Origin: an uncultured Chitinophagaceae bacterium
GTDB lineage: Bacteria; Bacteroidota; Bacteroidia; Chitinophagales; LD1
Direction of reading: 5' to 3'
DNA: 44,564 bases
Assembly: GCA_964605875.1 (NCBI GenBank)
Contig: CAZSEG010000008.1
Location: 1 to 44,564, forward strand
Made by a program: the position numbers and the translations under genes. Shown here one piece after another: positions 7,643-33,549 of the stretch. The first letter of the stretch is position 1, and each line of letters starts with the position of its first letter. The notes under the pieces are model-generated. The model was not told the DNA's origin. It saw nothing but the letters and a program-made list of their open reading frames with translations, and did no database searches.

Positions 7643-7674
7643 AACTTCATTCGTTCACAACTAAAAATTATATC

Positions 7675-7995: not shown

Positions 7996-8020
7996 TTCGA
8001 AATGAACTACCGAAATAAAA

Positions 8021-8051: not shown

Positions 8052-8100
8052 CTGCAAGCAATTTAATGAATAATGATACTGCCATAAAAATTGAATCGAA

Positions 8101-9002: not shown

Positions 9003-9023
9003 GGGGGGTATTGATGAACATAT

Positions 9024-10904
9024 ATGAAAAACTACTTGAATGAGAAAAAGAAAAAGTTATCAGCTATTGCACTGTTGGGTGTAATAAGTATTACTGCTAT
9101 TCTCTTGATTTTCCCAAATTGGTGGAATAATGCCTCTTTACAAGAATTTAAAAATTGGTATCCTATTTGGGGTCCGCTGATTTATTTCGGAATAAATTAT
9201 TTAATGCCGATATATTTTTGTTTGTGTGTAGTTACTCTATTCATACTTTATTTTAAAGAGTATATAATTTTTCTAAAATCTATTTTCGCAAGATTAAAAA
9301 ATATATGCAATCGTGTTATAAAGTATTTTTCCCAAGATGTTTTGAATGAAAGAAGGTTCGTTGCAGATTTGTTTCTGAAACTTTTAGCCCTTGTTTATTT
9401 AATTGCTTTTGGATCCCTACTTTGGCAGTTTCAGTTGGTTTCTGAAAATGGATTGATTCCTTACAAAGAATTTGCAGAACAAACTTTTTTGTCTGAAGGA
9501 TATACTGCTATTTTAAACTACCCTTCTGTTTTTTGGCTCAACCAATCAAATTGGTTTATTCTGACCGTCCTTTCTCTTTCCTGTGTAATTTCAATAGTCA
9601 GCCTTTTCAAGACAAAAACATTCAATTATTTTTTTCTATGGTTCTTTTATCTCTCAATTGTAACCTTTGGTCGTGATTTGTTTCATTTTCCTTGGGATAC
9701 CTTTCTTTTGGAAATAGGCTTTTTATCCATCTTTTTAGTTTGTTTCACTAAACGGCTTAATCAGTTTCCTCGAATCTTGCTTTTTACTTTTCTTTTATTG
9801 TTTTTCAGGCAATGGCTCTCTATGGGAATTACCAAAATATTATGGGCAGCCCCAACTTGGTATGACCTGACTTATATGAAATATTTCTGGTTAAATCAGC
9901 CAAGTCCTACGCCTGTTGCATGGTATATGTACCAACTGCCTATGCCCTTTCAAAAATTTTTTACGGCAGGAACTTTAATATTTGAAATAGCTATTCCTCT
10001 TGCTATGTTTTTTGGAAGAAAGGGCAGAATTGTGGCATTTTTTATTTCCCTGTTCTTATCTTTTATGATACAATTGAACGGAAATTATGGGTTTTTCAAT
10101 ATCCTCACGGTTATATTAGGGATTTGGTGTTTGGATGATCATTTTTTTAAGCGAAAAAGTAATTTAAGCCTTTCCACCTCGCAGGTTTTTTTAAAACACC
10201 GTTTTTTCAGAACCCTGAACTTTTTGCTGATTTATCTGATTACAGGTTTTAATTTGTTTTATGTCTATTTGCAGTTTGATAAACAATCGAATCATCCTGC
10301 CAATTTTTTAAACTATTATTTTTTTGATAAAAATGTTACACCGCAATCAGGTTTTATCAAACCGGTGTTTTTTGAGATGGGAAAGATAATTTCAAGATTT
10401 AGAATTGTTTCTCCTCATGGAGTGTTTAAATATATTCCCCAAAAGAGAAATTATATTCAAATACAAGTAAAAGTAAGTGAGAATGATTGGCAGAACTTAA
10501 CATTTTCCAAAGGCAGAGATATAATTAACTTTTGTTTTTCTGCACCCATTATGCATCGGTTGTCCTTTAATTTTTATTACCAGTCATACGGGATAGATTT
10601 CTTTCCTTTTTTAAAAATCAACCCAAATTCAAAATATATTAACTCTTGGATGAAAAATTTAATCAATGGTATTTTTGATAACAATAGTGAAATTAGAAAG
10701 CTGATTAGCTATTCTCAAAATGGCAAAGTAGAGCAAATCAGAGTTTTTCAAAATTATATGTATATCCATAAAAATGCAAAGATGCCCTTCCAAGATAATA
10801 GCGTCAAAAATCAAACTATTCGCATATTATATCTAAATCCTTCCGATAAATTTGAAACACCTTTTTTTGCATTTAGCTTAGACAAATTGATAAAGAAAGA
10901 TTGA
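9024..10904 (+). CDS. Polytopic membrane protein, lipase maturation factor (LMF1)-like
   Basis: 626 aa with many TM helices. 'LALVYLIAFGSLLWQFQLVSENGLIPY' and 'FPWDTFLLEIGFLSIF' resemble the LMF1 signature as I recall it (WD..LLE.GFL). The N-terminus carries the locus-specific WYP module. Confidence 0.55.
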   Translation: MKNYLNEKKKKLSAIALLGVISITAILLIFPNWWNNASLQEFKNWYPIWGPLIYFGINYLMPIYFCLCVVTLFILYFKEYIIFLKSIFARLKNICNRVIKYFSQDVLNERRFVADLFLKLLALVYLIAFGSLLWQFQLVSENGLIPYKEFAEQTFLSEGYTAILNYPSVFWLNQSNWFILTVLSLSCVISIVSLFKTKTFNYFFLWFFYLSIVTFGRDLFHFPWDTFLLEIGFLSIFLVCFTKRLNQFPRILLFTFLLLFFRQWLSMGITKILWAAPTWYDLTYMKYFWLNQPSPTPVAWYMYQLPMPFQKFFTAGTLIFEIAIPLAMFFGRKGRIVAFFISLFLSFMIQLNGNYGFFNILTVILGIWCLDDHFFKRKSNLSLSTSQVFLKHRFFRTLNFLLIYLITGFNLFYVYLQFDKQSNHPANFLNYYFFDKNVTPQSGFIKPVFFEMGKIISRFRIVSPHGVFKYIPQKRNYIQIQVKVSENDWQNLTFSKGRDIINFCFSAPIMHRLSFNFYYQSYGIDFFPFLKINPNSKYINSWMKNLINGIFDNNSEIRKLISYSQNGKVEQIRVFQNYMYIHKNAKMPFQDNSVKNQTIRILYLNPSDKFETPFFAFSLDKLIKKD

Positions 10905-11007
10905 CCTAACCCAATAAAATAACTCGTAAATTTTGATGTAACGGGCTTGGGAACTAAAAATGGAAACAATTTGTTATTTTCGTACTTTAATTAGTGATAT
11001 TTGAAAT

Positions 11008-12294
11008 ATGAACTCCGATATAGCCATAAAAGTTGAGCATCTTTCTAAGCTATATTCGCTTCACCATCCCCTGAAAGATGAACAGGGAAATGATACGCAT
11101 GAACTTTGGGCATTAAAAGATGTTTCGTTTGAAATTAAGAAGGGCGAAAGCGTTGGGATTATTGGACCTAACGGCAGCGGCAAAAGCACTTTGCTTAAAA
11201 TACTGGCAGGAGTAACAAAGCCGACATCGGGGAAAGTTGAAATAAACGGCAGGATTGCAAGCATTTTAGATATAGGCGCGGGCTTTCATCCCGAATTGAG
11301 CGGTCGGGAAAATATTTTTCTGAACGGGCAAATACATGGATTCAGTAAAAAAGAAATCCGGTTAAAATTTGATGAAATAGTCGCTTTTTCAGGAATTGAA
11401 AAATTTATTGATGAACCGGTAAAAAATTATTCCAATGGGATGTATTTGCGGTTGGCATTCAGCATTATGGCTCATTTAGATTTTGATATGTATTTGTTTG
11501 ATGAAGTATTTAGCGTGGGGGATACAAAATTCGCTGCTAAAGTCAATGAAAAGATTGATAAAATTATTAATTCAAAGAAAACAATAATACACGTAAGTCA
11601 CAATTTTAACGAATTTCATAATAAAGTTTTATACATTTTAGTTGAAGCCGGAGAAGTGAAAGAACTAAGCAGGAACAGGATGATAATATCTAATTATGTT
11701 GAGCGTAATCTTAATCTGAAAAAAAATGAAATTCTCACCAATGCGATTGAAATAGAGGATTTTTCAACCTTTCCTGAATCAGATGAACTTAAAATTATCA
11801 AGGTTAAGTTTTATCAAAACCAAAAGGACGATAAAGAGCAATTCATAACAAATAAGAGTTTTATCATTGAATTAGAATATGAAAAATTTAAGGACGAAAA
11901 TACCATTGATATTATACTAATAGTATCAGATTATCAGGGAAATCCTATTATTACCTCTACTTCTTTTATTGCGGGAGATTTTAGTAAATGGATTAAAAGG
12001 GGGCGGTATGTTAATCAATGTATTATTCCTTCGAATACTTTTCACTCTCAGCCGTACAAAATTAGTTTCTATTTTGTAAAAAATACAGAGCGTCTTGTTC
12101 TACAATCTATACATAATGAAAATGTTAAAAACCTATATAATGACAATACTATTGACATAGCATTAAAAATATCTGATTTAATATTATTTAAACCGTTGTT
12201 TTTCAAAAATGGAATGCCTGCGGATTTAGGTTCTTTAAATTTGGGAGGTCAAATCCTTTTGGGGTGTGATTGGAAATCAGAAAGCATAGTGTAA
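11008..12294 (+). CDS. wzt: ABC-2 type polysaccharide export ATP-binding protein with C-terminal extension (Wzt_C-like glycan-binding domain)
   Basis: Walker A 'GPNGSGKST', signature-like 'YSNGMYLRLAFS', Walker B 'MYLFDEVFSVGD', H-loop 'HVSHN'. About 180 extra C-terminal residues, as in Wzt proteins that recognise glycan caps. Confidence 0.88.
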   Translation: MNSDIAIKVEHLSKLYSLHHPLKDEQGNDTHELWALKDVSFEIKKGESVGIIGPNGSGKSTLLKILAGVTKPTSGKVEINGRIASILDIGAGFHPELSGRENIFLNGQIHGFSKKEIRLKFDEIVAFSGIEKFIDEPVKNYSNGMYLRLAFSIMAHLDFDMYLFDEVFSVGDTKFAAKVNEKIDKIINSKKTIIHVSHNFNEFHNKVLYILVEAGEVKELSRNRMIISNYVERNLNLKKNEILTNAIEIEDFSTFPESDELKIIKVKFYQNQKDDKEQFITNKSFIIELEYEKFKDENTIDIILIVSDYQGNPIITSTSFIAGDFSKWIKRGRYVNQCIIPSNTFHSQPYKISFYFVKNTERLVLQSIHNENVKNLYNDNTIDIALKISDLILFKPLFFKNGMPADLGSLNLGGQILLGCDWKSESIV

Positions 12295-12365
12295 ATTCGT
12301 CCGGTAAACCTAAGATAGTGAAATCTAAAATAATCAACCTGATTCAACAGGATATTGTTCAAAAA

Positions 12366-13157
12366 ATGTATCTCAATTATAATCGAGTTTGGGATAAACA
12401 GAAAGATTACCCTTATTTAAATTATTTTGGAATAAATTTTGACTTGGAAAGTATATCTTCCATAAAATTTTACTTTCATGTTTTTAGTAAACTGGATGAA
12501 AATATCGTAAAATTATTTTTACCGAAAACTGATGATTTTTTCAACTATTATCATTTGCACGACCTCAAAAAAGTTAATTCAGCATCAGCAGATGATACAG
12601 GTTGTGCTTTTGAGATTAAATTTTACAAGGATAAAAAACACCCTGATATAGGATTTCATTACAGATTGAAGCCGGCACAAGCCTCGTTTGATATTATTGG
12701 ACAGCCAAAAAATCTACCATTTGATGTTTTAACATTAAACACTTCTCCCGGTATAAATTATGAATATAGCAGTGGTGGTCATGTACTAAAGAAAAAATAT
12801 TTCTATTTAAAAGACTCCTCTCATAAAGAGTATTTTTCAAAAAGATTCGGGTATGATTTCCTGCTGTCCGCAGACACAATTGAGTATGCCGAGTCCGATT
12901 ATTTTGCTAAAATTAATACATACTATGGGAATGATTATGACAGCCGAGATAAGGCAAATATTTTTACAGAACCACAAAAAAAATTAATACGGGAATTATG
13001 TGAACAGTTTAATTTAGAAATTACAGGTTTAGGTTATTATGAGCAATCAACTATTAGGTCGGTTTATTTTTTTAGTAAAAATGATACTATACCTATAAGT
13101 TCAACAGAGAAAATTACCCAGTATTATGTGGATACAATTGGCAGATTGATTAAGTAA
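12366..13157 (+). CDS. Hypothetical protein; five Tyr/Phe-rich beta-hairpin repeats (possible PT-barrel/ABBA-like fold)
   Basis: The ORF is open from a TTG at 12270; the first ATG is at 12366. Repeated strand pairs: 'FGINFDL/IKFYFHV', 'AFEIKFY/IGFHYRL', 'GINYEYS/KKYFYLK', 'TIEYAES/AKINTYY', 'GLGYYEQ/IRSVYFFS'. I recognise no family with confidence. Confidence 0.5.
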   Translation: MYLNYNRVWDKQKDYPYLNYFGINFDLESISSIKFYFHVFSKLDENIVKLFLPKTDDFFNYYHLHDLKKVNSASADDTGCAFEIKFYKDKKHPDIGFHYRLKPAQASFDIIGQPKNLPFDVLTLNTSPGINYEYSSGGHVLKKKYFYLKDSSHKEYFSKRFGYDFLLSADTIEYAESDYFAKINTYYGNDYDSRDKANIFTEPQKKLIRELCEQFNLEITGLGYYEQSTIRSVYFFSKNDTIPISSTEKITQYYVDTIGRLIK

Positions 13158-13238
13158 TAAAAAGATGAACTAATAAATAAAGGATATATCATTGCCAAGT
13201 TGCTAAAATAAAGGAGAATTAAAAAAAGGTCAGAAGAA

Positions 13239-14099
13239 ATGAACACTTTTGAAGTACAGGAAATGTTCTCCAGCAATATACAACATCACCATACAAATTA
13301 TATTCAGGATATGAAAATTCTAAGAAATCCGGTTTTACAAAATTTTCTGAATCAGAATGGATATGTGGTCTTAGATCTGTTCAACGAACAGAATGTACAA
13401 GATTTTTTGGACGAATACTATTCTTTTGAAGAAAAATTTCAATTTAGCAATGGCGTTCATATAACTATGGAACATTGCAGTCCTGATTTGAGTAAAATGA
13501 TTTCTGATAAACTAATAAATCTGGCAACTGATTGTTTCAACAATACTTTTAAGGATTATAAGTTGTTTCAAGGCAGTTTTATATCAAAACAACAAAATTC
13601 AGAATCTAATGAAATCCACCATCACCAAGACTGGACATTTGTAGATGAGCAAAATGGTTTTGAATCTTATACACTTTGGATTGCTTTATGCGACATTACA
13701 AAAGATATGGGAACGATTGGAGTTATTCCGAAAAGTCATTCGGATATAAAAAACATTCGCTATTCCCCCATAGAAAAATACTCTTTTTATTCTGAACTGT
13801 TAGAGTATGCAAGCCAAAAATCAGTTGAGTATATTGAGTTGAAAGCGGGTCAGGCTGTTTTATGGAATCATCGTTTGGTGCATAGTTCAAGTGCCAATAA
13901 TTCTGGAAAAGTCCGTATCAATATGACTTTCGCAATAACATCTAAAGATGCACAATTGAAATTATTTTGGTTATCGCCCAAAACAAACAAAGTAGTAGAA
14001 TTTAATGTTCCTGACAATTTCTACTCAATAAATAATTCCTCAACACTTTCAGCGTATTTTAAAAACGCTGAATACCCTGAAAATGCAATTGAAGTTTAA
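13239..14099 (+). CDS. Phytanoyl-CoA dioxygenase (PhyH) family Fe(II)/2-oxoglutarate oxygenase
   Basis: 286 aa. Facial triad 'HHQD' (H at 13623-13625, D at 13629-13631), distal His in 'LWNHRLVHSS', and the PhyH-type 'GTIGVIPKSH' segment. Confidence 0.75.
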   Translation: MNTFEVQEMFSSNIQHHHTNYIQDMKILRNPVLQNFLNQNGYVVLDLFNEQNVQDFLDEYYSFEEKFQFSNGVHITMEHCSPDLSKMISDKLINLATDCFNNTFKDYKLFQGSFISKQQNSESNEIHHHQDWTFVDEQNGFESYTLWIALCDITKDMGTIGVIPKSHSDIKNIRYSPIEKYSFYSELLEYASQKSVEYIELKAGQAVLWNHRLVHSSSANNSGKVRINMTFAITSKDAQLKLFWLSPKTNKVVEFNVPDNFYSINNSSTLSAYFKNAEYPENAIEV

Positions 14100-14123
14100 C
14101 GCGCTACACCGAAATAATACAGT

Positions 14124-15002
14124 ATGAAAAAAATATTTAATGACCCTCAGCAAAACAGTCAATACATCAATGAAGGCTATGTTATTTGCGATTTACTTTC
14201 CCCTGAAGAAGTACAAAGCACATTGTCTGAACTGACGGCATTACGCCCTGATGATAAATTTGCACCAATAGACAGAGCCTCCAGCTATCATTGCACATTT
14301 CTTGACACAAACGAAGATTACAAACGAAGTGTCAATAGCCTGATTCAAAAAATATTAAATCCTTATCTCGAAAAGATTTTAAACGAATATGTGATTTGGG
14401 GAGCAAATCTTTATGTGAAGCCATCCGGAACAGGAAAGTTTGAGATGCATCAAAACTGGATGCACGTCAGCAATGAAAAAGAGCAAACTTCATTAACAAT
14501 TTGGTGTCCGTTGGTAAACACCAGCACCGATAATGGCACAATTCAGTTAGTTCCAAAATCTCATAAAATTGTACCGGATATTGCTACTGCAAATGTACCT
14601 TGCTATTTTTCTGAAATAGAAGATTTCATATTAAGTGATTATTTACAACCAATTCCTTTAAAAGCCGGGCAGTGTGTGATTTTTGAAGATGGGGTTATCC
14701 ATTTTTCGGATGTTAATCTGGCAAGCACACCAAGATATGCTCTTCAAATATTAGTGGGGCATAAAGAAGTAAAGCCTGTTTACTATTATTTTGATGAAAA
14801 AAATCCTGAAAAAGGTTTTGAAGTGTTTGAATTGGAAACAGATTTTTGGGTAACAAGCAGCTATCATACATTCAGAGATAAACCTAAAAATCAAAAGTCG
14901 GTTGGTTTTGTTGAAAACATCAATAAACAACTGAATAGAGAAGACTTCATTAAAGCAATGGAAAATGGTGCTGTAAGAAGAAAAGAAATTTACGGTGATT
15001 AG
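14124..15002 (+). CDS. PhyH family oxygenase paralogue with an HxN in place of HxD
   Basis: 292 aa, collinear with the previous ORF ('GTIQLVPKSH', 'LKAGQCVIFEDGVIHFS'). The triad reads 'MHQN' (N111 = AAC at 14454-14456). Confidence 0.7.
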   Translation: MKKIFNDPQQNSQYINEGYVICDLLSPEEVQSTLSELTALRPDDKFAPIDRASSYHCTFLDTNEDYKRSVNSLIQKILNPYLEKILNEYVIWGANLYVKPSGTGKFEMHQNWMHVSNEKEQTSLTIWCPLVNTSTDNGTIQLVPKSHKIVPDIATANVPCYFSEIEDFILSDYLQPIPLKAGQCVIFEDGVIHFSDVNLASTPRYALQILVGHKEVKPVYYYFDEKNPEKGFEVFELETDFWVTSSYHTFRDKPKNQKSVGFVENINKQLNREDFIKAMENGAVRRKEIYGD

Positions 15003-16177
15003 GCGGTTACTTTTAATGAAACCAATTTAAAAATTGAACCATTAAACAGGGTGAAATACTCATCTTGGGAGTAACGAAAGTTATCTGTCGGGATAAACTT
15101 TATTAAGAATTGTTGTGTTATTTTTTTTGCAAGCTGTTCACCAAGACATTTATGCTGTCCATATCCAAACGCAAGATGCTTTTGTTTTTGTTCGGGATAA
15201 AATGTTTGCGGATTCATAAACTGTTCCGGGTCTCTGTTGGCAGCTCCTAAAAATAAAGCAATAGTAGAATTAGGCGGAATCGTTATTCCGTCAATGCTGA
15301 CCTCCGTATTGTTTTCCCTGAATGTCAGTTGTATCGGTGAGTACAGCCTGAACACTTCATTCATGAACTGCTCTGAATAGTCCGAATCGTTTATCAATTT
15401 TTTTCTGTCTGCCACATCGGTATAAATCAAATACAAACAAGAGGTAATTGCGCTGGCTGTTGTTTCAGTTCCCGAAAAAATTAAAAACCGGATAAATTTT
15501 ATCAGGTCTTCTTTAGAATGTTGAGTTATTCCACTAATTCCCGACAACATATTTTTCATGTTTTCAGAAAAAGTTTTTTCAGATAAATTTTTTTCAATAA
15601 CCTCGTCTAACAGGCTCCAGTTTTCATAAATGTTTTTGATATACTGATTTCGCAATGCTCTGTTGTTTTGAACAGAAAAAATATTGATAGAATCCGGTAA
15701 TTTTAAAAATCCCAATGATTTGAATGTCATTGTAAGCATAAAAGGATTTATTAATTCGTCAACCAGATTGATTGTTTCCAATTGTTTTGTTTCTTCTGAA
15801 AGATGATTAAAACAGAGGTTGAAAAAATCAGCGTTTACAGGCAGGGAAGAATAATTATCAATAATTTCTCTTTTTATTTTTAAGTGATTACTAACATCAG
15901 CACCTAACAGTACGGGATCCATTGAACGATGAAAACGAGATGGAGCATAAACATCACTATTTCTTATGATTGCTTTTAAGGTATCATATCTGAATACAAT
16001 GTAGCAATCGTTTTTCTTTGAATAAAAAGTCTTCCCGATTTTGTAAAAATCATTGTAGTATGTAAATAAATTATCTCTGAATTCCTGAGAATAAATATCA
16101 AGCTCGCTCAAATCAGCAGTTTCCTTACGAATTGGGTTAAACAGTAATTTAAACCTTGTAAGCAGACTATTTTTCAT
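14999..16177 (-). CDS. Cytochrome P450
   Basis: 392 aa. I-helix 'SGTETTA', ExxR 'EVFRLYSP', heme-thiolate loop 'FGYGQHKCLGEQLA'. Confidence 0.9.
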   Translation of the reverse strand: MKNSLLTRFKLLFNPIRKETADLSELDIYSQEFRDNLFTYYNDFYKIGKTFYSKKNDCYIVFRYDTLKAIIRNSDVYAPSRFHRSMDPVLLGADVSNHLKIKREIIDNYSSLPVNADFFNLCFNHLSEETKQLETINLVDELINPFMLTMTFKSLGFLKLPDSINIFSVQNNRALRNQYIKNIYENWSLLDEVIEKNLSEKTFSENMKNMLSGISGITQHSKEDLIKFIRFLIFSGTETTASAITSCLYLIYTDVADRKKLINDSDYSEQFMNEVFRLYSPIQLTFRENNTEVSIDGITIPPNSTIALFLGAANRDPEQFMNPQTFYPEQKQKHLAFGYGQHKCLGEQLAKKITQQFLIKFIPTDNFRYSQDEYFTLFNGSIFKLVSLKVTA

Positions 16178-16180
16178 ACT

Positions 16181-17026
16181 TTACTTTTGTGCACTTATCA
16201 AATAATAATGGTACATTCCTGTTTTCAAATACATCTTCTCTCTCAATTCATCCATATTCTTGATTTCATTTTTTTGTATGGTGTCGGAATGTCTCCATTC
16301 GTTGAAATTTTCGGAGAACAAATAACCGTAGGGCAATACATCTTCACTGATTTCTTCAGCTTCCACATTTTTGAATCCGGCTTTCTTTAATTTATCAACG
16401 TAAACATCAATAGAATACAAATTTTGGGAGGGAACACCCATAAATTTCGAGGCAGTTAACACGCTCGGATTATTGGTGTCATTTGATTTCGGCAATGCGT
16501 CAGTGAGAATCAGGCTGCCGCCTTTTTTCAGTACTCTGAATGCTTCATTAAAAAAACGCTCTCTGCTATTAAAATGAAAAGCACATTCAACAGCAATAAT
16601 CTTATCAAAAAAATCAGCCTGAAACTTTAGCTGAACAGCATCACCGCTCAAGAGTTTTACTCTGTCTGAAAGATTATTTTCCAAAATCTTTTTCTGAGCA
16701 TACTGCACCTGTTTATCAAAAATATTTATTCCTGTAATACAGATACCATGAAAAATTTGGGCGATATATATATCCTGAATTCCATAACCAAAACCCACAT
16801 CCAGAATATGCTCTCTATTCTTTAATGCTGCCTTTTCCATAACTAAATCCAGCATTTCCCTGCAAGCAAAATCTATTGTATCGGCATTTTTCCAATATCC
16901 TAAATTCAACCATTCATAATTAAGATTTCTGTTATTGGATACTCTTGCATCTTCCAGTATCTCATACAACTGATGCACAGAAGTATCTGTTTTTTTACGA
17001 CTGAATATTTTAGAGAAATTGGACAT
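16181..17026 (-). CDS. Class I SAM-dependent methyltransferase
   Basis: 281 aa. 'LNLGYWKN..' followed by motif I 'ILDVGFGYGIQD' and post-I/II 'LLSGDAVQL', 'KKGGSLILTD'. It lies 3 nt upstream of the P450 on the same strand. Confidence 0.85.
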   Translation of the reverse strand: MSNFSKIFSRKKTDTSVHQLYEILEDARVSNNRNLNYEWLNLGYWKNADTIDFACREMLDLVMEKAALKNREHILDVGFGYGIQDIYIAQIFHGICITGINIFDKQVQYAQKKILENNLSDRVKLLSGDAVQLKFQADFFDKIIAVECAFHFNSRERFFNEAFRVLKKGGSLILTDALPKSNDTNNPSVLTASKFMGVPSQNLYSIDVYVDKLKKAGFKNVEAEEISEDVLPYGYLFSENFNEWRHSDTIQKNEIKNMDELREKMYLKTGMYHYYLISAQK

Positions 17027-17044
17027 GAAAAATCAGGAATTACA

Positions 17045-17052
17045 CAAAACTA
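17045..17052 (-). promoter_or_regulatory. Candidate -7 box (TAgtTTTG on the minus strand) for the methyltransferase-P450 operon
   Basis: The plus strand reads CAAAACTA, which is TAGTTTTG on the minus strand, 19-26 nt upstream of the ATG at 17026. Confidence 0.35.
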
Positions 17053-17137
17053 AGTATAGAAGGCATAATTACAATATAATTCACAACAGTTTCTTACAGA
17101 CTTTCGGCTATTTTTACACTGGTAAAGTATAACAAGC

Positions 17138-19297
17138 GTGGAAATTGATTCTTTAGACATTAGCTCCTTTGATTTTTTTAAGAACCCTTATTTTTATTAT
17201 GAAAAATTGAGGGTGCGAAATCCTGATGTTCACTTCCTGAGTAAAAATGGTTGTTATCTTGTAATAGGATTTGGGGCTGCTGCAAAAGTTCTTGGCACTC
17301 CTAAAATTTACAGTTCAAAATTCAATGAAGTTTTTGACAGTGTTTTAATTGGTTCTGACCCTCCCGTTCACACAACAAACCGTAAAATACTCACAGAAGA
17401 ACACGATTTTCTGAAAACGAAGCTGGAAGATTATATCCGAGTCAGAATAGAAGATATTGCTTCTTATGTTTTAAATCAAACAGGCAACAAACAGGTTACA
17501 GATGTGGTGAGAGATTTTGCCTACCCTTTATCTACGCTTATCATTTTTGAAATGCTTGGATTGGATATTTCAAATGATAAAATCATAAAGGAATGGACTT
17601 ACAATGCTGTGCTGAACATCAATATTCATAACATTCACAATTCGGAACACCACTGGCAAATATTCAAACCTGTTGTTGAAGCGTATATTGATAAAAAAGA
17701 AAACAGTTCGGTTTTTCTTAATCAAAAAATTCGCGAGAGGTTTTCCAGAGAGGAGCTAATCAGTGTAACAAAAATATTTTTAACAGGCGGAAACGAAACA
17801 ACTCCGAAACTTATCACTTCCTGTCTTAATTACCTCATCAGGAATAAATCTTTATGGAACTTAGTGAAGACTAACGAAGATGCTTTGGAACAGGTTATCC
17901 ATGAGATACTAAGATTGGAAGCGCCTGTTCAGATTATCAACCGTATAGCCACAGAGGATACATCTCTTGGCGGAGTTCAGATTCCTAAAGGCTCGGTTAT
18001 TTTTGTTTCGCTTGCTGCGGCAAACAGAGACCCCCGTGTTTTCGACTCTCCAAATGATGTAATATTACACAGGGACAAACAGAAAATTCTTTCATTTGGT
18101 TATGGACCTCATCATTGTATAGGAGCTTCTTTAGCTAAAACCGAAACCAAAATAGCTTTGAAAAAATTTATTTCCCATTTTAAAGAACCCCATTTACTTC
18201 CGATTTCACAACAAGACTACATTGAATCCAGCCATGTCAGAGGTTTGAAATATTTATATGTTCAAGATGCTGATTCTGTGAAAAAAGTCAGCAATTACAG
18301 AGAAAAAGCGGTTGATTTATTAGAGGCACAATTAAAAGAATATAATCACTTTCCTACGTTTGAATTTTATCCGGATTTTGAATCCAAAAAACATAAAGGC
18401 TGGCATTATACTTACCCCTCGCCATTTATACATGCCAATGTTATCTGTTCATTGCTTAATACTGAAAATGAACAACTGATAAGTTTGGCAAAAAAAGGAA
18501 AACCGTTTTTACTGGAAACGAAAGAAAGCGGAGATTTATGGAGGTTTTGGAAAACGGATAATTGTCAGCACCCAGTTCCTTTTGATATAGACGATACTGC
18601 AGTCTGTTCTTTTGCCTTAGAGAAAATGGGTCATGCTGTCAAAAACAAAAAAAGACTACTGCGCAATATAAAAGATGACGGAACGATTTTAACATGGTTT
18701 AAATCTCATTTCAAGCTGTCCGATTTTTGCTCTCCGAAATCAATTTACAAAGCGTTTTACGAAAAAAAAGCTATCCGATATACTTACGAAGCAAAAATGT
18801 TTGACTGGCAGGATTCCGAAGCAGGAGTTGCTTCCAGTGCGCTGATGTATTTGAATAATATACCATTGGAGAAATCTGTTGAAAAATGTATTTCACTTTG
18901 GAGAAATAATGATTCAAAGCATAATTTTTATGACAAAAAAATTGTCGTTGCTTATCACATTGCAAGGGCTTACAAGGAAGGGATACAATCTTTCGATGTT
19001 CTTAGGGCTGAAATGGAAGCGTATATCCAAAACAATCTGGATTACTTTGAATTTGCAGAATTATTGTTTGCCTGCCTGACCCTGAAATATCTTAAACTGG
19101 AAGAAGACACTTACAAAAAAACCTACATAAAGATTATCAATTATGCACTTGGCAACCCTGACGATTTATTTTCATATTATCCTTATTTCACATCAAAAGA
19201 CCATGTTTTTTATGCAGGGTCAAGATGCTTAACCGCAGCGATGTTCTTGGAAGTAACAAAAGATTATGACCTCAGTCCGGGCGGTAATGATTTTTAA
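17138..19297 (+). CDS. Fusion protein: cytochrome P450 (N-terminal ~380 aa) plus an alpha/alpha-repeat domain carrying a class II terpene cyclase-type DxDDTA motif (C-terminal ~330 aa)
   Basis: GTG start. P450 motifs 'GGNETTP', 'EILRLEAP' and 'FGYGPHHCIGASLA' (Cys327 at 18116-18118). The C-terminal domain has 'VPFDIDDTAVCSFAL' (DIDDTA at 18584-18601). Compare squalene-hopene cyclase 'DVDDTAVV' and copalyl-diphosphate synthase 'DIDDTAM'. Confidence 0.8.
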   Translation: MEIDSLDISSFDFFKNPYFYYEKLRVRNPDVHFLSKNGCYLVIGFGAAAKVLGTPKIYSSKFNEVFDSVLIGSDPPVHTTNRKILTEEHDFLKTKLEDYIRVRIEDIASYVLNQTGNKQVTDVVRDFAYPLSTLIIFEMLGLDISNDKIIKEWTYNAVLNINIHNIHNSEHHWQIFKPVVEAYIDKKENSSVFLNQKIRERFSREELISVTKIFLTGGNETTPKLITSCLNYLIRNKSLWNLVKTNEDALEQVIHEILRLEAPVQIINRIATEDTSLGGVQIPKGSVIFVSLAAANRDPRVFDSPNDVILHRDKQKILSFGYGPHHCIGASLAKTETKIALKKFISHFKEPHLLPISQQDYIESSHVRGLKYLYVQDADSVKKVSNYREKAVDLLEAQLKEYNHFPTFEFYPDFESKKHKGWHYTYPSPFIHANVICSLLNTENEQLISLAKKGKPFLLETKESGDLWRFWKTDNCQHPVPFDIDDTAVCSFALEKMGHAVKNKKRLLRNIKDDGTILTWFKSHFKLSDFCSPKSIYKAFYEKKAIRYTYEAKMFDWQDSEAGVASSALMYLNNIPLEKSVEKCISLWRNNDSKHNFYDKKIVVAYHIARAYKEGIQSFDVLRAEMEAYIQNNLDYFEFAELLFACLTLKYLKLEEDTYKKTYIKIINYALGNPDDLFSYYPYFTSKDHVFYAGSRCLTAAMFLEVTKDYDLSPGGNDF

Positions 19298-19348
19298 AAA
19301 GTTAAATCCTTATTTTGTTCTCAGGAATTAAACGCACAACGTTTTTGT

Positions 19349-20764
19349 ATGATAAGAAGATTGAAGAATAAAATAAAAAAAATATGGGAAACTCCGGTTT
19401 CAGACGGTGATACAGCCAGCCGTTCTTGGACAGATGAATTTAATAAGCACCGCAACAAAAAAGATATTTTTCGTGTCTGCCATGCCCCGTTCAAATCCAT
19501 CAGATTTGAGCCGAAGGGCATCGTGCGTACCTGTTGCTATAACGTTGAGGTTGTTTTAGGGCGTTATCCGGAAATGTCATTAACTCAAATTTGGAATAGC
19601 GATGAGGCGAATTTGCTAAGGGAAAAAATCAGTAACAATGATTTAAGCATGGGATGCCGCTTGTGCGGGCAGCAGTTAGCAAACAAAGAATACAGCACCG
19701 TTAAACTGTTGCAATATGATAATTTGCCCGACAGTATCAACAATTATCCTGTAATGCTTGATTTTTCATTGCACAATACTTGTAATTTGGAATGTGTGAT
19801 GTGTCACGGAGAGTTTTCTTCTTCTATAAGAAGCAATCGCGAAAAGCTGCCCCCTGTTCCAATGTTGTATGACGATAATTTTGTGCAGCAACTGGAAGAA
19901 TTTATTCCTTATGCACGGCAATTTGTATTTGCAGGTGGCGAGCCGTTTCTAATCAAGGTATATTACGATATTTGGGAACGCATCAATCGCCTGAGTCCCG
20001 AATCAGATATTCACATTGTTACAAATGGTACAATCTTAAATGAACGGGTAAAAACGATACTTGCCGCAGGAAAATATCACATTACCATGTCAATAGATTC
20101 CTTTCAGGAAAAAACCTACGAAACAATAAGGGTAAACGCATCATACAAACGTGTTATGGAAAATATGCAGTTTTTTCAAGAATACTGTAAACAACAAAAT
20201 ACCGAGTTTGCTGTTAATGTTTGCCCGATTAAAGAAAACAGGTTTGAAATTCCGGAAATGGTTGGCTTTTGTAATGCGCACGCAATTAAGTTGTATCTGT
20301 TAAACATCGTGTATCCTGTTGGGGTGTCTTTACACACACTGCCTTTGGCAGAACTGCAAACATTGCATGATAACTATGCTGCGTATCAATTTGAGCAGGA
20401 CACATACATCAGTAAACACAATTTAAAACAGTTTGAAGATTTGCAAAACAGAATTGCGGCACTGATACAAAAGAAAACGACAGATACCCCCGATGCTCAA
20501 TATACAGATGGCGACAAAGTTATGTTTGAGGTATATACCGACTTGCTTACAGAGAAAGCAGACAGGTTTTATCAGGAATCGGGGAGCGATGTTGTTGATG
20601 CCAGACAAAAAATAACAGAGATAGGAATACATTTTAAAGACAGTTACGTTTCTAAAGGAAGATTGAAAGAAATGGAAAGCATCAGTTCCGAAAGAATAGT
20701 TGTAATGTTCAGGACATTGTCTCATGAAGAGTTGAAAGAAGTAATAAAAACCCATATACTTTGA
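19349..20764 (+). CDS. Radical SAM enzyme with an N-terminal SPASM/twitch-like Cys motif
   Basis: 471 aa. CX3CX2C 'CNLECVMC' at 19781-19804. Upstream of it, 'CHAPFKSIRFEPKGIVRTC' fits CX12GX4C (first Cys at 19478-19480), followed by 'IW' and 'GCRLCG'. Confidence 0.82.
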   Translation: MIRRLKNKIKKIWETPVSDGDTASRSWTDEFNKHRNKKDIFRVCHAPFKSIRFEPKGIVRTCCYNVEVVLGRYPEMSLTQIWNSDEANLLREKISNNDLSMGCRLCGQQLANKEYSTVKLLQYDNLPDSINNYPVMLDFSLHNTCNLECVMCHGEFSSSIRSNREKLPPVPMLYDDNFVQQLEEFIPYARQFVFAGGEPFLIKVYYDIWERINRLSPESDIHIVTNGTILNERVKTILAAGKYHITMSIDSFQEKTYETIRVNASYKRVMENMQFFQEYCKQQNTEFAVNVCPIKENRFEIPEMVGFCNAHAIKLYLLNIVYPVGVSLHTLPLAELQTLHDNYAAYQFEQDTYISKHNLKQFEDLQNRIAALIQKKTTDTPDAQYTDGDKVMFEVYTDLLTEKADRFYQESGSDVVDARQKITEIGIHFKDSYVSKGRLKEMESISSERIVVMFRTLSHEELKEVIKTHIL

Positions 20765-23064
20765 AAAGCAGCTTTCATATAAAAGACAAAATTTCCCCTT
20801 GGTGGCAACCTAAGATTGCTTTTATACTATCGCATTGCTATTTGTGCTTTGCCATATTCCAAACAGATATTGTCCGTTCTGTTTTGTTTGTACTTCTGTT
20901 TACAATAAGTGCGTTAGGATTCGGTATGCTGGGGCATATCATTAACGATTGGACAGACGCAGAAACCGACAGAAAAAGCGAAAAAAAAAACATCGCCAAC
21001 GCATTTGGCTTTCGGAAATTACTGTGGGTTACTTCAGGTACATTATTGATTGCATTTTTCCCTTGGTTCTTTTTGGGGTTCGACCACATCATAGCAGCAT
21101 TTCTTATTGCCGAAATCCTGCTTTTTATTTTGTATTCCGTAAAACCGTTCAGGGTAAAGGAAAGAAAATGGGGCGGGGTACTTTTTGATGCCTTATATGC
21201 TTACGCGCTCCCGACTGCGCTGGTTTTTTATTCGGCAACAATATTTTTTGAACAGCCGCTAAACTTGATACTATTGGTGTCTGTGTCATTGTGGGCTTTG
21301 GCTGTGGGAATACAGAATATTATCATTCACCAGATAGAAGATTATGAAAATGATATTAGCTCAAAAACCCAAACATGGGTTGTGCAAACCGGAAGGCAAA
21401 AGGCACGAAAATTAGTACTCGCCTTTATTGTGCCACTCCACCTGTTATTATTTCTGCTGTTTGTATTTTATGTAGAAACACATTATTTACGTTTTTATGC
21501 CTTATTTCCATTATTGTTTCTTGCTTTCAGAATATACAAAACATTTCATTGGAAATCGTATAATTCTTTTCTGCGTTCTCCCGTATCATCAGACCTGCAA
21601 AAAATCAATATTCACTATCATTTTTTTCTTCCTTACTGGCATTTGCTTCTGTTGATTTTTATTGATTTTAAATTTGTCGTTTTGTTGATAACGCATTTCA
21701 TTTTCTTTAATTCCTCATTATTCAGTTGGCTTATTGCTAAATACATATCACCTTTTTTATTTTTTATTTTTTACAAAACACCCGCAGTAATTACAAATTA
21801 CGCTGTTTTTTATTACCGCCTTTTTTTTCTTGGAGAGTCGGCAGAACGTGCAAGACGAGAACATTATGCTTCGTATATCGCTGCAAAAAATGAAAAACAC
21901 AAAAGAAACACTTTGCCTAATATTGCCGTAGCGAACAGCAACAAAAACAAATACACCGAAACCTTTGTCGAAAATCATGTTGATGGTCTTCTTCGCTCAA
22001 ATTTTTATGTACACAGACTTTACGGAGGAAATTTACCATCTGCCGATTACCGGACGGGAATCCTTATTTCCAACAGCAAAGCATATATCAAATATTGCGA
22101 GTGGAAAGAGTTTATTTTCGATTTACCCGAAAATTATTATCAGAAAAAGGCAGTGAAAGATTATTTGGTAAAAAACAATATTACTCTTGCGTTGGCAGAG
22201 TTTGGAACGTGTGGCGTTGAACTATATGAAATTTGCTCCGAAATAAATATACCCTTAATTGTTATTTTTCACGGTTACGATATTCATCACAGTGATATAC
22301 GCGAAAAAAACAGACATCGTTACCTTAAAATGTTTGACTATGCTGCTAAAATTATAGGAGTTTCAAAGGATATAATAAGCAGGTTAAAAGAATTGGGTGC
22401 TGACGATAAAAAACTGATTTATTTACCTTGCACTTTTAATGCCGGTATATTCCAATATTCAGATCATTCAAAATGCGAAAATATTTTTCTTGCCGTAGGA
22501 AGATTTACAGAAACTAAAAGTCCGCACCTGACAATTCTTGCATTTAACGAAGTGTTGAAAGAAATTCCAAATGCACGGCTGAGAATGATTGGAAAAGATG
22601 GCGGAGGCGAATTATTTGAAGCCTGTCATATTCTGGCAAAAGCATTGAGCATAGAAAATAAGATTGATTTTTTGGGTGTTCTTTCGCCTTCCGAAGTTTA
22701 TGAAGAAATGAAAAATGCACGGGTATTTGTGCAACATTCATTGACAACCCCGCTGCATGGAGATAAAGAAGGAACTCCCGTTTCCGTAATAGAAGCAATG
22801 GCTTGCGGGCTGCCGGTAGTTGCTACCCGCCATGCGGGCATTGCAGAGCTAATCCGGTCGGGTGAAAATGGGATTTTGACAGAGGAGTATGATTATTTGA
22901 CAATGGCAAAAGAAATGGTGCGTGTTTGCAAAAACGATGCTTTAGTTTTTTCATTGGGAAAAAATGCTTCGGAAAGTATCCTGACCAATTCTTTAATCAC
23001 TGAAAATTCCAATATCTTAGCCGAGATAATTGAAAAATGCAGACTAAACAGTAAAACTTGCTGA
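20761..23064 (+). CDS. Fusion protein: UbiA-family prenyltransferase (N-terminal, membrane) plus GT4 glycosyltransferase (C-terminal)
   Basis: 767 aa. The TTG start overlaps the previous stop, so the start is uncertain. Asp-rich motifs 'NDWTDAETD' (20944-20970) and 'EDYEND'. About 8 TM helices, then a WcaL-like GT4 with 'GRFTETKSPH' and EX7E 'EGTPVSVIEAMACGLPVVAT' (22768-22794). Confidence 0.8.
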   Translation: MKSSFHIKDKISPWWQPKIAFILSHCYLCFAIFQTDIVRSVLFVLLFTISALGFGMLGHIINDWTDAETDRKSEKKNIANAFGFRKLLWVTSGTLLIAFFPWFFLGFDHIIAAFLIAEILLFILYSVKPFRVKERKWGGVLFDALYAYALPTALVFYSATIFFEQPLNLILLVSVSLWALAVGIQNIIIHQIEDYENDISSKTQTWVVQTGRQKARKLVLAFIVPLHLLLFLLFVFYVETHYLRFYALFPLLFLAFRIYKTFHWKSYNSFLRSPVSSDLQKINIHYHFFLPYWHLLLLIFIDFKFVVLLITHFIFFNSSLFSWLIAKYISPFLFFIFYKTPAVITNYAVFYYRLFFLGESAERARREHYASYIAAKNEKHKRNTLPNIAVANSNKNKYTETFVENHVDGLLRSNFYVHRLYGGNLPSADYRTGILISNSKAYIKYCEWKEFIFDLPENYYQKKAVKDYLVKNNITLALAEFGTCGVELYEICSEINIPLIVIFHGYDIHHSDIREKNRHRYLKMFDYAAKIIGVSKDIISRLKELGADDKKLIYLPCTFNAGIFQYSDHSKCENIFLAVGRFTETKSPHLTILAFNEVLKEIPNARLRMIGKDGGGELFEACHILAKALSIENKIDFLGVLSPSEVYEEMKNARVFVQHSLTTPLHGDKEGTPVSVIEAMACGLPVVATRHAGIAELIRSGENGILTEEYDYLTMAKEMVRVCKNDALVFSLGKNASESILTNSLITENSNILAEIIEKCRLNSKTC

Positions 23065-24851
23065 AAGGATTACACATAAATTTGTTCGCAAAGGCAACTG
23101 TTCCCTGGGTTATATGGACTGTATGCTTTTTTTTGTACTACCATCCGGGAATTGCTGCTCTCTTAGTTTTTATTGAATCGAACGTTGCTTTTTTGTTTAC
23201 GGCAAATTATTCGGAATACAAACAATGGTATCCTAACTGGCATCTTCTTGTATTTTTTGTTTTCCGTATTTTCCCGTTTATACTCATTTTACTGTGCAGC
23301 TTTCTTCTTCTAAAAATTATTCAAAAAAAAGGCAATAAGATTCTTAGCCGTTTAATCCCGTTTTTTGAGCTTAATTTCATGCAGTTGTTGTTTAATGCCG
23401 TTGCATTGTTACTTTTTTGGCTATTTGTGTATTACACGTTTCAGCCCGATTTTACCCGGCAGCTTATTATGGCACGTTGCTTTGTTTTGACACTTTATAT
23501 GCAACTGCTATTAACTGTTGTATTTAATTTTAACCGGGTAAAGAATATACTTAAACAATTTCTTTTTGTGCCTGCATTGCCATATACGCTGTCCATTTTC
23601 AGAATACTTTTTTATGCTTACAGCATTATATTTTATTTAGGCAACAGTGCCCGTTATTTTAAATCTGTTGCGAGCGGAACATTTACGCCAATGCCAATAT
23701 TTGGCGAATTATTTTATGTTTTTTCAACTTCTTTGTTTTTATATCAAGTTGTTTTTTGGCTGTGCATTGCTTCTTTTATAGGCGTAATAATAGGCTATAA
23801 AACTCGCTTGTTCTTAATATTAAGTGCAGTGCTAAGCCTGTTTGTGATAAGTGTTCCCAATATGTTTGGAACAAGCTGGCATCATCATCTTTTTATATGG
23901 GTAACATGGTTTTTAGTATTCAGTCCTTGTTTTGATGTTTATTCCATAGACTCGTATTTAAATAAAAACAAAACAATCCGGTTAAAAGGTGAATATACTT
24001 TCACTATTCGTATTATCTGGCTTCAAATAGGTATTCTGTATTGGTGTTCAGGTGTTGCTAAATTATGGGATTCCGGTTTTGACTGGGCATTGAGCGATTC
24101 TATGATTAACCAGTTTCAATTAGAATGGTTTGAGAACTATAATAAAGTGCCATATATCCGAATAGACAGATACCCGGCTTTAATGAAATTTGGCGGCTTG
24201 GCAGCGATTTGTTTTGAAATGCTGTACTTCTTCTTCCTTTTTAAAAAATATACCAGAAGAATTGCAATTTGGGGAGCATTGCTGATGCACAACCTGCTTG
24301 GATATTTTCTATATATCAGTTTTCTTGCTGCGCTTCAGGCTTTTTATATAGTTTTTATTGACTGGAATAAATATTTTAAGAGCAATAATGTGGCGGAAAT
24401 TCAAGACCGAAATCCTGTAAATAAGTGGAATATTCGTATCGGTATCGGAGTTGTTTTAATGAATCTGTTTTTTGGTATGGCATCTATTAAAACGTATCCT
24501 TTTTCCGGTTATCCTGAATATTCAGAAATTATACCTGACTATACATATCAACTTAAACTTACCGGATATAATGATGATAAAATTGTTTTTACAAATGCCG
24601 ATTTTGAGAAAGAAGGCTTTGACTGGGAAACTTTCAGACGGAGAGAACAAAAAATTGCCAATGTTTTTTTAGGGGGAAATGATTGCGAATCGTATATCAG
24701 GTCGTATTGGAGTTTGATTAACCAACATATTCGCGCATCGAAAGATGTTCGCAATCTTGATGTCAGCCTGCTTAAAGTAAACCTGAACCCGGACAGCCTG
24801 AAAATACTTGACGAGAAATTTATCGGGAGCTATTCGTTTGCTGTAAAATAA
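23058..24851 (+). CDS. HTTM domain (vitamin K-dependent gamma-carboxylase-like) polytopic membrane protein, paralogue 1
   Basis: 597 aa, TTG start. 'LSIFRILFYAY', 'WHHHLFIWVTWFLVFSPCFDVYSID' and 'WLQIGILYWCSGVAKLWDSGFDWA' fit the HTTM pattern. Strongly collinear with ORF 27921-29750. Confidence 0.6.
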   Translation: MLKGLHINLFAKATVPWVIWTVCFFLYYHPGIAALLVFIESNVAFLFTANYSEYKQWYPNWHLLVFFVFRIFPFILILLCSFLLLKIIQKKGNKILSRLIPFFELNFMQLLFNAVALLLFWLFVYYTFQPDFTRQLIMARCFVLTLYMQLLLTVVFNFNRVKNILKQFLFVPALPYTLSIFRILFYAYSIIFYLGNSARYFKSVASGTFTPMPIFGELFYVFSTSLFLYQVVFWLCIASFIGVIIGYKTRLFLILSAVLSLFVISVPNMFGTSWHHHLFIWVTWFLVFSPCFDVYSIDSYLNKNKTIRLKGEYTFTIRIIWLQIGILYWCSGVAKLWDSGFDWALSDSMINQFQLEWFENYNKVPYIRIDRYPALMKFGGLAAICFEMLYFFFLFKKYTRRIAIWGALLMHNLLGYFLYISFLAALQAFYIVFIDWNKYFKSNNVAEIQDRNPVNKWNIRIGIGVVLMNLFFGMASIKTYPFSGYPEYSEIIPDYTYQLKLTGYNDDKIVFTNADFEKEGFDWETFRRREQKIANVFLGGNDCESYIRSYWSLINQHIRASKDVRNLDVSLLKVNLNPDSLKILDEKFIGSYSFAVK

Positions 24852-25662
24852 TACCTATTTTCTTTTGCAATTCAGGTGGGTTTTGCCCCCACAAACTATT
24901 AATCTGAAACAGGAAACCGTAAATAAACTGAGGCGGCATTTTTTTTGTTATCAACTGTTTTTCAAATTGTTTCACGAAATTTAAAGAATCGCAAACTAAA
25001 TTGCTCATACAACTGTAACAATTCTGGAACATATAGTTGTTATTTTTTTTTCTTAAAATGGCATCAATAGCAATAGTATCTATGCAAGCTCCGCCCATAT
25101 TTTGAAGCCAATTGTTTTCGGTTTCTTTTCGTATTGATATTTCCTGATATGCCGTATCTTCCACAATTTGTATGTTTTCCAAATTTTGGTTTTTTAAATC
25201 GTGAAGCAATTCAAAAAAATCTTTAGGCTTATTTAAGCTGTCTGCAATTGTGCAGTTAAAAAAAGCATCTTGTACAATCCATTTTGAAGGGGAATCGGAT
25301 ATTTTTACAAGAGCAACGACATGAGATAAATGAATATTGAACCCGAAATTGTAAGTGCAGGCTTCAATCCCCTGCCGTTCAAGAGATTTTACAAGCAGGG
25401 CTGCCGCTAATCCGCAAGTGGTACGCCCTTTATTTTCATTTATTCTTTTCAGGTATTTATCTGTATCAAAATCTTCAAAAGTATCGTATCTGAAATCATT
25501 TAAAACGGGGTCAATGCTGTCGCCCATAATAATCAGTTGCGCTATGGTTCGCCTCTGGTTTTGACTTATTTCAAATTTCGCCTGCATTTCTTCAGCTCGT
25601 TGCTTACAAGACTGAAACAAAACGAAGCTGCAGCACAGGAAGAAAACAAACTTTAGATTCAT
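24820..25662 (-). CDS. Lipoprotein with a transglutaminase-like Cys-His-Asp core (putative cysteine peptidase/acyltransferase fold)
   Basis: Signal peptide with lipobox-like 'VLFQSC'. 'GRTTCGLAAALLVKSLERQGIEACTYNFG...HVVALVK...WIVQDAFF' matches the C...H...D spacing of transglutaminase-like domains. Confidence 0.5.
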   Translation of the reverse strand: MNLKFVFFLCCSFVLFQSCKQRAEEMQAKFEISQNQRRTIAQLIIMGDSIDPVLNDFRYDTFEDFDTDKYLKRINENKGRTTCGLAAALLVKSLERQGIEACTYNFGFNIHLSHVVALVKISDSPSKWIVQDAFFNCTIADSLNKPKDFFELLHDLKNQNLENIQIVEDTAYQEISIRKETENNWLQNMGGACIDTIAIDAILRKKNNNYMFQNCYSCMSNLVCDSLNFVKQFEKQLITKKMPPQFIYGFLFQINSLWGQNPPELQKKIGIILQQTNSSR

Positions 25663-25708
25663 TAGTAAGGGATTGCAACGAAACTAATAAGATGTTTGAA
25701 TTTTCCTA

Positions 25709-25716
25709 TAAATTTG
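25709..25716 (+). promoter_or_regulatory. Candidate -7 box (TAaaTTTG)
   Basis: Exact TAnnTTTG match, 16 nt upstream of the ATG at 25732, in the 69-bp divergent intergenic region. Confidence 0.35.
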
Positions 25717-25731
25717 AAACCTTAATGTTGT

Positions 25732-26937: not shown

Positions 26938-26950
26938 ACAAGAGAATAAA

Positions 26951-27919: not shown

Positions 27920-27920
27920 A

Positions 27921-29750: not shown

Positions 29751-29753
29751 ATC

Positions 29754-33548: not shown

Positions 33549-33549
33549 C

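Follow-up and report, generated by a model that had tools for sequence, protein, structure and literature searches.

A cytochrome P450 fused to a single-barrel class II terpene cyclase-like domain recurs in gene clusters of Bacteroidota

A P450 and one helical barrel in a single open reading frame

The window analysed here is a stretch of 44,564 nucleotides (contig CAZSEG010000008.1 of assembly GCA_964605875.1) from an uncultured Chitinophagaceae bacterium. Within a cluster of low GC content, it carries one open reading frame (ORF) in which a cytochrome P450 is directly followed by a helical domain bearing a DIDDTA motif (Table 1). The preliminary description of this DNA had suspected that a cyclase-like module was coupled to a monooxygenase; this is now supported by fold, profile homology and an aligned motif, from which we infer that the module is active. 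Moreover, the fusion recurs in other Bacteroidota, where it lies in gene clusters that share much of their content.

The N-terminal half is a complete bacterial P450 of the class I type, with a cysteine loop, an ExxR motif, an I-helix acid-alcohol pair and a full-length fold. Besides the Pfam and NCBIfam matches, solved bacterial P450s align end to end over residues 8-373 of the fusion ORF (best E 5.9e-44). Across 15 fused orthologues, F320, G321, G323, H325, C327 and G329 of the haem loop are invariant, while G217, G218, E220, T221 and T222 of the I-helix, as well as E256 and R259 of the K-helix, are conserved at a level of at least 90%. The coordinates, the three motifs, the Pfam match and the alignment thus bear out the single ORF with a complete P450 half that had been described from the letters.

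The C-terminal ~335 residues, earlier called helix-repeat-like, are all-helical, with ~12 helices predicted. Taken alone, this domain gave no match in Pfam, in NCBIfam or, using phmmer, among the PDB sequences. We therefore compared its AlphaFold2 (AF2) model (predicted local distance difference test, pLDDT, 78; predicted template modelling score, pTM, 0.82) with the PDB by Foldseek. The best match was the drimenol synthase AsDMS (E 1.2e-7, TMq 0.69), and further neighbours were a 334-residue 'prenylcyclase' (6ij1), the class II domain of a fungal copalyl-diphosphate synthase (CPS), Tpn2, squalene-hopene cyclase (SHC) and Rv3377c. All matches at E<=1e-3 were exclusively class II cyclases or a 'prenylcyclase', so that the unrelated fold which the preliminary description had allowed for did not appear. 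A literature search on the PDB entry 6IJ1 gave nothing relevant. Other (alpha/alpha)6 barrels, namely LanC-like, glycoside-hydrolase (GH) and complement-TED barrels, were considered and rejected: TED and GH structures appeared only at Foldseek E >= 0.018, with low TM scores, and the Pfam TED matches found in 15 relatives were weaker than the cyclase matches.

The family to which this domain belongs becomes visible only through an exhaustive profile search. A word-indexed search of 5.8 billion proteins returned 7 relatives with the C-terminal domain as query and 13 with a profile, whereas the exhaustive profile search of 50%-identity representatives returned 626 relatives at E<=1e-3, 317 at <=1e-10 and 47 at <=1e-30. 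For comparison with the PDB, the family profile was built from 85 free-standing relatives, the full-length alignment having drawn mostly P450 matches. It recovered the cyclase domain of AsDMS (1.7e-24), SHC (5e-11), AstC (1e-8) and ent-CPS (2.5e-4); for MstE the match had an E of 0.05 and spanned ~43 residues. A domain scan of 87 relatives identified Pfam SQHop_cyclase_C (PF13243) in 29 and, as partner domains, P450 in 16, UbiA in 7 and PhyH in 4. Overall, homology and fold support the assignment of the C-terminal domain to the class II (protonation-type) terpene cyclases, as a beta domain of this superfamily. The P450 is followed by one barrel of ~330 residues only, and the second (gamma) barrel is absent. 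The single barrel had already been noted as possibly non-canonical; the observation stands, but it is no anomaly, as MstE, the beta domain of AsDMS and a Sorangium mono-beta synthase exist.

To map the catalytic residues, the window domain and AsDMS (in Fujiyama numbering) were aligned to the family hidden Markov model with hmmalign, and conservation was counted over 87 family members. The motif D483-I-D485-D486-T-A, found exactly where it had been reported, aligns with D331-L-D333-T-T of AsDMS and D374-V-D376-D377-T-A of SHC. Given the amino-acid composition of the ORF, DxDDTA would be expected 5e-4 times in it, and a six-frame translation of the whole window contains it a single time. The catalytic D331 of AsDMS corresponds to D483 (D in 83 of the 87 members) and its general acid D333 to D485 (D in 85, E in 2); position 486 is D in 78. 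Y598 is the counterpart of Y427, the residue that activates the general acid of AsDMS and forms a hydrogen bond with it, and the AsDMS variants D331A/N, D333N and Y427F are each inactive (PMC12365925). Protonation of an unactivated olefin is the task of a DxDD motif that keeps all of its acidic positions (PMC12232559). Three cation-pi aromatics of AsDMS, F281, F318 and F509, likewise have counterparts in F430, F470 and F684.

The residues that bind diphosphate in AsDMS are not kept: Y373 is replaced by W520, R425 by N596, Y426 by F597 and R513 by D688, and R378 falls in a loop that cannot be aligned. Judging from this loss, the head group of the substrate probably differs from that of AsDMS. 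Two basic residues could be candidate head-group ligands, namely R469 in the WRFW motif, a near-invariant Arg specific to this cyclase family, and K687 in the YPYFTSK segment, which is invariant in the fused orthologues.

How the two halves are joined was examined in a full-length AF2 model of the fusion protein (pLDDT 80, pTM 0.73). A confident helix, residues 378-402, bridges the domains, and this helix together with the pTM suggests that P450 and cyclase may form a fixed two-domain unit.

Recurrence of the fusion and its variants

Scanning one genome per species, we located 13 loci in Bacteroidota, namely in Chitinophagaceae, Chitinophaga, Chryseobacterium, Flavobacterium, Fluviicola, Crocinitomicaceae and others. 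A single uninterrupted ORF of 706-766 residues with the haem loop is present in 10 other Bacteroidota genomes belonging to several families. The DxDD motif was seen in 9 of these 10 fused-ORF loci, the motif check being negative in L016. The cultured isolate Flavobacterium sp. 123 encodes a 717-residue orthologue (WP_121337435.1) that is annotated only as 'cytochrome P450', and several 50%-identity clusters hold fusions of ~703-722 residues.

These findings bear on the possibility, raised in the preliminary description, that an assembly or frameshift artefact had joined two neighbouring genes. In its favour, some other genomes do have the P450 and the cyclase as two separate genes. Nevertheless, the uninterrupted ORF in 10 independent genomes, its presence in a cultured isolate, the clusters of similar length and the junction modelled as a confident continuous helix effectively refute this explanation, to which we give a negligible chance. 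The fusion is real and recurrent.

The same two partners also occur in other arrangements. In the split loci L001-L006, the P450 gene stops 6-12 nt upstream of a free-standing cyclase gene, and in L018 the two genes overlap. Among distant relatives, the order can be reversed to cyclase-P450 (P0074, P0087, P0106 and P0154), or the cyclase is fused to UbiA (P0059, P0103, P0121 and P0058), to an acyltransferase or to an epimerase. The metagenomic locus L024 contains three consecutive cyclase/P450 units (positions 3675-13540), composed of two gene pairs, each with the cyclase before the P450, and then a 779-residue cyclase-P450 fusion. These three units suggest a modular or iterative use of the pair. 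They are flanked by genes for a GT2 and two GT4 glycosyltransferases, a sulfotransferase, a UbiA protein and an MBOAT protein, with the UbiA gene following the fusion.

The fused P450 domains of both orders score 130-214 bits among themselves, compared to 55-87 bits with the P450s of split loci and 111-141 bits with the second P450 of the window. We considered whether the split-locus P450s are orthologues of the fused one and rejected this, the bit scores indicating a separate P450 lineage. In a rough neighbour-joining tree without support values, fused and free cyclases are interspersed, which suggests more than one fusion or fission event. Fused in both orders, adjacent when split, present as three pairs in one locus and accompanied by related P450s when fused, the P450 and the cyclase appear to be functionally coupled.

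The gene cluster around the fusion

The fusion lies in a cluster that differs in GC content from its flanks. The latter (1-8000 and 35777-44564) hold housekeeping genes, including those for topoisomerase subunit A, an aminotransferase, thioredoxin, RecQ, LpxD and an LpxC-FabZ fusion. This LpxC-FabZ gene and the closest relatives from the locus scan assign the contig to Bacteroidota. An Rfam scan of the window found no family. The features of the fusion and of the surrounding cluster are collected in Table 1.

Table 1. Coordinates of the fusion ORF, its domains and motifs, and the surrounding cluster genes (positions in the window)
Feature	Position	Strand	Remarks
P450-cyclase fusion ORF	17138..19297	+	719 aa; GTG start; stop included
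Cytochrome P450 domain, aa 1-375	17138..18262	+	Pfam p450 E 2.6e-28; NCBIfam P450 models 1e-41 to 1e-44
I-helix oxygen-activation motif GGNETT, aa 217-222	17786..17803	+
K-helix ExxR (EILR), aa 256-259	17903..17914	+
Haem-binding loop FGYGPHHCIG, aa 320-329	18095..18124	+	thiolate ligand Cys327 at 18116-18118
Connecting helix, aa 378-402	18269..18343	+	P450 C-terminus to first barrel helix; full-length AF2 model, block pLDDT 87-96
Class II terpene cyclase beta domain, aa ~385-712	18290..19273	+	single (alpha/alpha)6 barrel
SPFIHAN segment	18419..18439	+	F430, counterpart of AsDMS cation-pi F281; F in 82/87 members
WRFW motif, aa 468-471	18539..18550	+	F470, counterpart of AsDMS cation-pi F318
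DIDDTA general-acid motif, aa 483-488	18584..18601	+	D485 at 18590-18592, predicted proton donor
Y598	18929..18931	+	counterpart of acid-activating AsDMS Y427; Y in 84/87 members
YPYFTSK segment	19178..19198	+	F684, counterpart of AsDMS cation-pi F509
Gene cluster	8101..35708		GC 31-38% vs 41-44% in flanks; bounded by thioredoxin and RecQ genes
Wzm-like ABC-2 permease	8101-8925	+	recurs in most related loci
LMF1-like (lipase maturation factor) membrane protein	9024-10904	+	626 aa; recurs in L009 and L011 only
Wzt/TagH-like ATPase	11008-12294	+	recurs in most related loci
Conserved protein, ~295 aa	12270-13157	+	no family match; recurs in most related loci
Two PhyH-family Fe/2-oxoglutarate dioxygenases	13239-14099, 14124-15002	+
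Second, free-standing P450	14999..16177	-	392 aa; 29% identity to fused P450 domain
S-adenosylmethionine (SAM)-dependent methyltransferase	16181..17026	-
Radical SAM enzyme with SPASM/twitch	19349..20764	+	immediately downstream of fusion
UbiA prenyltransferase (aa ~1-340) fused to GT4 glycosyltransferase	20761..23064	+	767 aa; Pfam UbiA 3.8e-13, Glycos_transf_1 1.4e-32
Two paralogous polytopic membrane proteins	23058-24851, 27900-29750		no family match in Pfam/NCBIfam
Conserved protein	25732-26937		no family match

The neighbourhood of the fusion is conserved. In 8 fused loci, PhyH is the most recurrent family (18 genes), followed by epimerase, P450 and UbiA (9 genes each), TylF methyltransferase (7), ABC_tran and ABC2_membrane (7 each) and Asn synthase-like proteins (5). 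The remaining genes of the window's cluster encode an epimerase, GDSL proteins, a weak GT2-like ORF and a UDP-glucose dehydrogenase.

Most of the related loci that were examined contain a UbiA gene. In most fused loci its start coincides with the end of the fusion ORF or lies slightly before that end; in the window it lies two genes downstream, with the radical SAM gene between. Both Asp-rich motifs of the UbiA family are invariant, and the UbiA encoded in the window is likely the supplier of a prenylated substrate. The UbiA-GT4 fusion is also found in L008 and L009, and a UbiA-cyclase-TPR protein adjoins Wzm and a Wzt with a Wzt_C domain.

The radical SAM enzyme has its SPASM/twitch domain (aa 44-106) N-terminal to the core (aa 141-286) and comes near the NCBIfam 'N-terminal twitch' family NF033640 (164 bits vs a cutoff of 170). 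Its orthologues occur in the related loci L002, L006, L017 and L018. In L023 (9061-14781), which holds a relative of 24% identity, the usual place of the P450 is taken by a radical SAM gene that overlaps the beginning of the cyclase gene. Two further radical SAM genes follow, and the rest of this locus (Wzm/Wzt, PhyH, UbiA and AsnB) is like the fused clusters. L023 may be an oxygen-independent version of the system.

In the split loci L001-L006, L017 and L018, the gene for the conserved protein of ~295 residues has the Wzt ATPase gene on one side and the P450/cyclase genes on the other. The fused locus L009 has this gene as well, separated from the fusion by PhyH genes, and L023 holds a possible counterpart. 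The two paralogous membrane proteins are 36% identical (E 1e-110) and have orthologues in L008 and L011. The LMF1-like ORF was considered as their relative and proved unrelated by comparison; the gene right after the P450-cyclase ORF in the Chryseobacterium loci L009 and L011 is its orthologue.

Proposed function and relation to known systems

With moderate confidence, we propose that the protein combines an active beta-only class II cyclase and a P450 that work on the same molecule, a prenyl chain delivered by UbiA, on the way to an exported, decorated terpenoid glycolipid. D485, held by Y598 and backed by D483 and D486, would protonate a C=C bond of the prenyl chain, and F430, F470 and F684 would stabilise the carbocations during ring formation. 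The haem-thiolate P450 half would oxygenate this molecule too, with hydroxylation of the cyclised scaffold as the most likely reaction. Rather than a free prenyl diphosphate, the substrate is probably a prenyl chain that the UbiA enzyme has already linked to an acceptor. Dioxygenases, methyltransferases and glycosyltransferases could then decorate the product, which the Wzm/Wzt-type ABC transporter of the cluster would export as a surface or membrane terpenoid glycolipid.

Several observations weigh against this proposal. Two of the five cation-pi positions of AsDMS are non-aromatic in the window protein (F328 corresponds to V480 and F518 to A693). It also deviates at two near-invariant sites (18836-18856, aa 567-573), with Ser for N567 and Asn for G573; N and G are each found in 79 of 87 relatives at these positions, and both are retained by the closest relatives of the window protein. 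The predicted position of DIDDTA at the floor of the cavity comes from homology mapping only. No polyprenyl synthase is encoded in the cluster or found among the recurrent families of the 8 fused loci, and the UbiA enzyme is too divergent from the solved UbiA structures (closest E ~0.01) for an acceptor to be assigned. Moreover, the cluster otherwise resembles an ABC-transporter-dependent glycan locus. As to electron supply, no ferredoxin ORF or Pfam match of that kind is present anywhere in the window, and no dedicated reductase partner gene lies near the fusion in the window. It should be noted that the absence of a nearby redox partner gene is usual for bacterial P450s and is no argument against activity.

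The main rival explanation reverses the order of the two reactions: the P450 would epoxidise a prenyl double bond and the cyclase would protonate the epoxide, in the manner of squalene epoxidase and oxidosqualene cyclase, giving a hydroxylated polycycle. This epoxidase-plus-epoxide-cyclase logic accounts equally well for the strict 1:1 ratio in which cyclase and P450 genes are paired, and an obligate pairing, whether the two are fused both ways, adjacent if split or present as three pairs in L024, is what a substrate-product relay predicts. In addition, once the chain terminus is used, more cyclisations would require the activation of internal olefins. We nevertheless regard the reverse order as rather unlikely. 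The full DxDD acid cluster is kept together with the activating Tyr, whereas epoxide-opening cyclases such as oxidosqualene cyclase (OSC; VxDCTA) relax the DxDD motif, and in the distant locus L023 the gene upstream of the cyclase codes for a radical SAM enzyme. Radical SAM enzymes are not known to act as epoxidases. The complete strong-acid motif and the replacement of the P450 by a radical SAM enzyme in this relative therefore favour cyclisation before oxidation, with a C-H functionalisation by the partner rather than an obligatory epoxidation before cyclisation.

The barrel could also be a homologue that does not cyclise. It might then bind a polyprenyl, such as a glycan linked to polyprenyl phosphate, and present it to the P450 or UbiA, or carry out other acid catalysis (hydration, isomerisation or cleavage of an allylic linkage) in an ordinary glycan pathway. 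Glycan-type genes do dominate the cluster (Wzm/Wzt, GT4, the weak GT2-like ORF, the epimerase and the UDP-glucose dehydrogenase, with AsnB-like amidotransferases in relatives), and the missing prenyl synthase, the N567S and G573N substitutions and the absent diphosphate-binding residues of AsDMS point in the same direction. We consider such a role improbable, as a near-universal Asp pair, an activating Tyr and pocket aromatics across hundreds of divergent relatives are unlike a passive binder, and as neither the fold nor the profile searches gave any (alpha/alpha)6 hydrolase or LanC-type protein a score close to those of the cyclases.

Among known systems, the drimenol synthases of the HAD-TCbeta type (AsDMS of Aquimarina spongiae and the fungal AstC) come closest. 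Like the window protein, they carry a C-terminal beta-only cyclase in a two-domain bifunctional enzyme, and AsDMS, too, is found in Bacteroidota. AsDMS is the best match in both sequence and structure, and it shares with the window protein the Asp pair, the activating Tyr and three cation-pi aromatics. However, AsDMS has a HAD phosphatase at its N-terminus instead of a P450, a DxDTT motif instead of DxDDTA, and diphosphate-binding residues that the window protein has not kept. Its two domains are connected by a disordered linker (PMC12232559, PMC12365925), where the AF2 model of the fusion predicts a rigid helix. The gene contexts also differ, with farnesyl diphosphate synthase and AraC genes around AsDMS and UbiA, glycan and ABC genes here.

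MstE, the monodomain merosterolic acid synthase of Scytonema, is likewise a single beta barrel without a gamma domain. Its chain is installed by a prenyltransferase rather than supplied as a free diphosphate, which fits the UbiA neighbour and the cyclase-UbiA fusions described above. On the other hand, its sequence similarity to the window family is marginal, it lies outside the top 50 fold matches, it has a DxD motif, and neither a P450 fusion nor a glycan/ABC context is reported for it in the literature covered. SHC and the bacterial class II diterpene cyclases of the beta-gamma type have DxDDTA at the same helix-N-terminal position, the same barrel fold and profile homology. They are ~480-630 residues long, compared to the ~330-residue barrel here, and the window protein largely lacks QW repeats; without a gamma domain, the active site of the fusion cannot lie at a beta-gamma interface. 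The window domain is thus neither a canonical beta-gamma cyclase, nor a HAD-TCbeta drimenol synthase, nor demonstrably a relative of MstE.

As a pair of activities, the fusion resembles squalene epoxidase with oxidosqualene cyclase and other oxygenase/cyclase pairs, in which an oxygenase and a protonation-type cyclase act on one prenyl chain. There, however, the oxygenase is a flavoenzyme and the cyclase has a DCTA motif. We know of no case in which pairs of this type form a single polypeptide. The beta-only cyclases named in the literature covered are MstE, the HAD-fused enzymes (AsDMS/AstC) and one Sorangium mono-beta synthase. Targeted searches of the searchable literature found no description of a fusion between a P450 and a class II cyclase, and within that scope the early suspicion that this architecture was undescribed has held.

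To our knowledge, no beta-only class II terpene cyclase was known before 2020, and the three kinds just named are those characterised to date. The present findings add a large uncharacterised cyclase clade, comprising 626 clusters at 50% identity (E<=1e-3), whose members are repeatedly fused to or paired with P450s and UbiA prenyltransferases in glycan-export clusters. If active, the fusion would be, as far as we found, the first natural single-chain class II-type cyclase-monooxygenase, and it would be useful for biocatalysis. Its activity would also point to a bacterial terpenoid glycolipid family that current genome-mining tools may miss, because the domain has no Pfam or NCBIfam match and the annotation of the protein goes no further than 'cytochrome P450'. 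Since an orthologue exists in a cultured Flavobacterium, the idea is directly testable.

More tentatively, the fusion could be the signature enzyme of a widespread and unrecognised pathway for exported cyclic-terpenoid glycolipids, a wider view that we hold to be possible but doubtful. In such a pathway, a divergent UbiA would provide a sugar or phospho acceptor with a polyprenyl chain, and one or more beta-only cyclase/P450 pairs, or radical SAM partners in some lineages, would cyclise and oxidise the chain. Glycosyl-, methyl- and sulfotransferases would decorate the product, and Wzm/Wzt would deliver it to the cell envelope. If this is true, the product would correspond in function to hopanoids or sterols, in Bacteroidota and other phyla.

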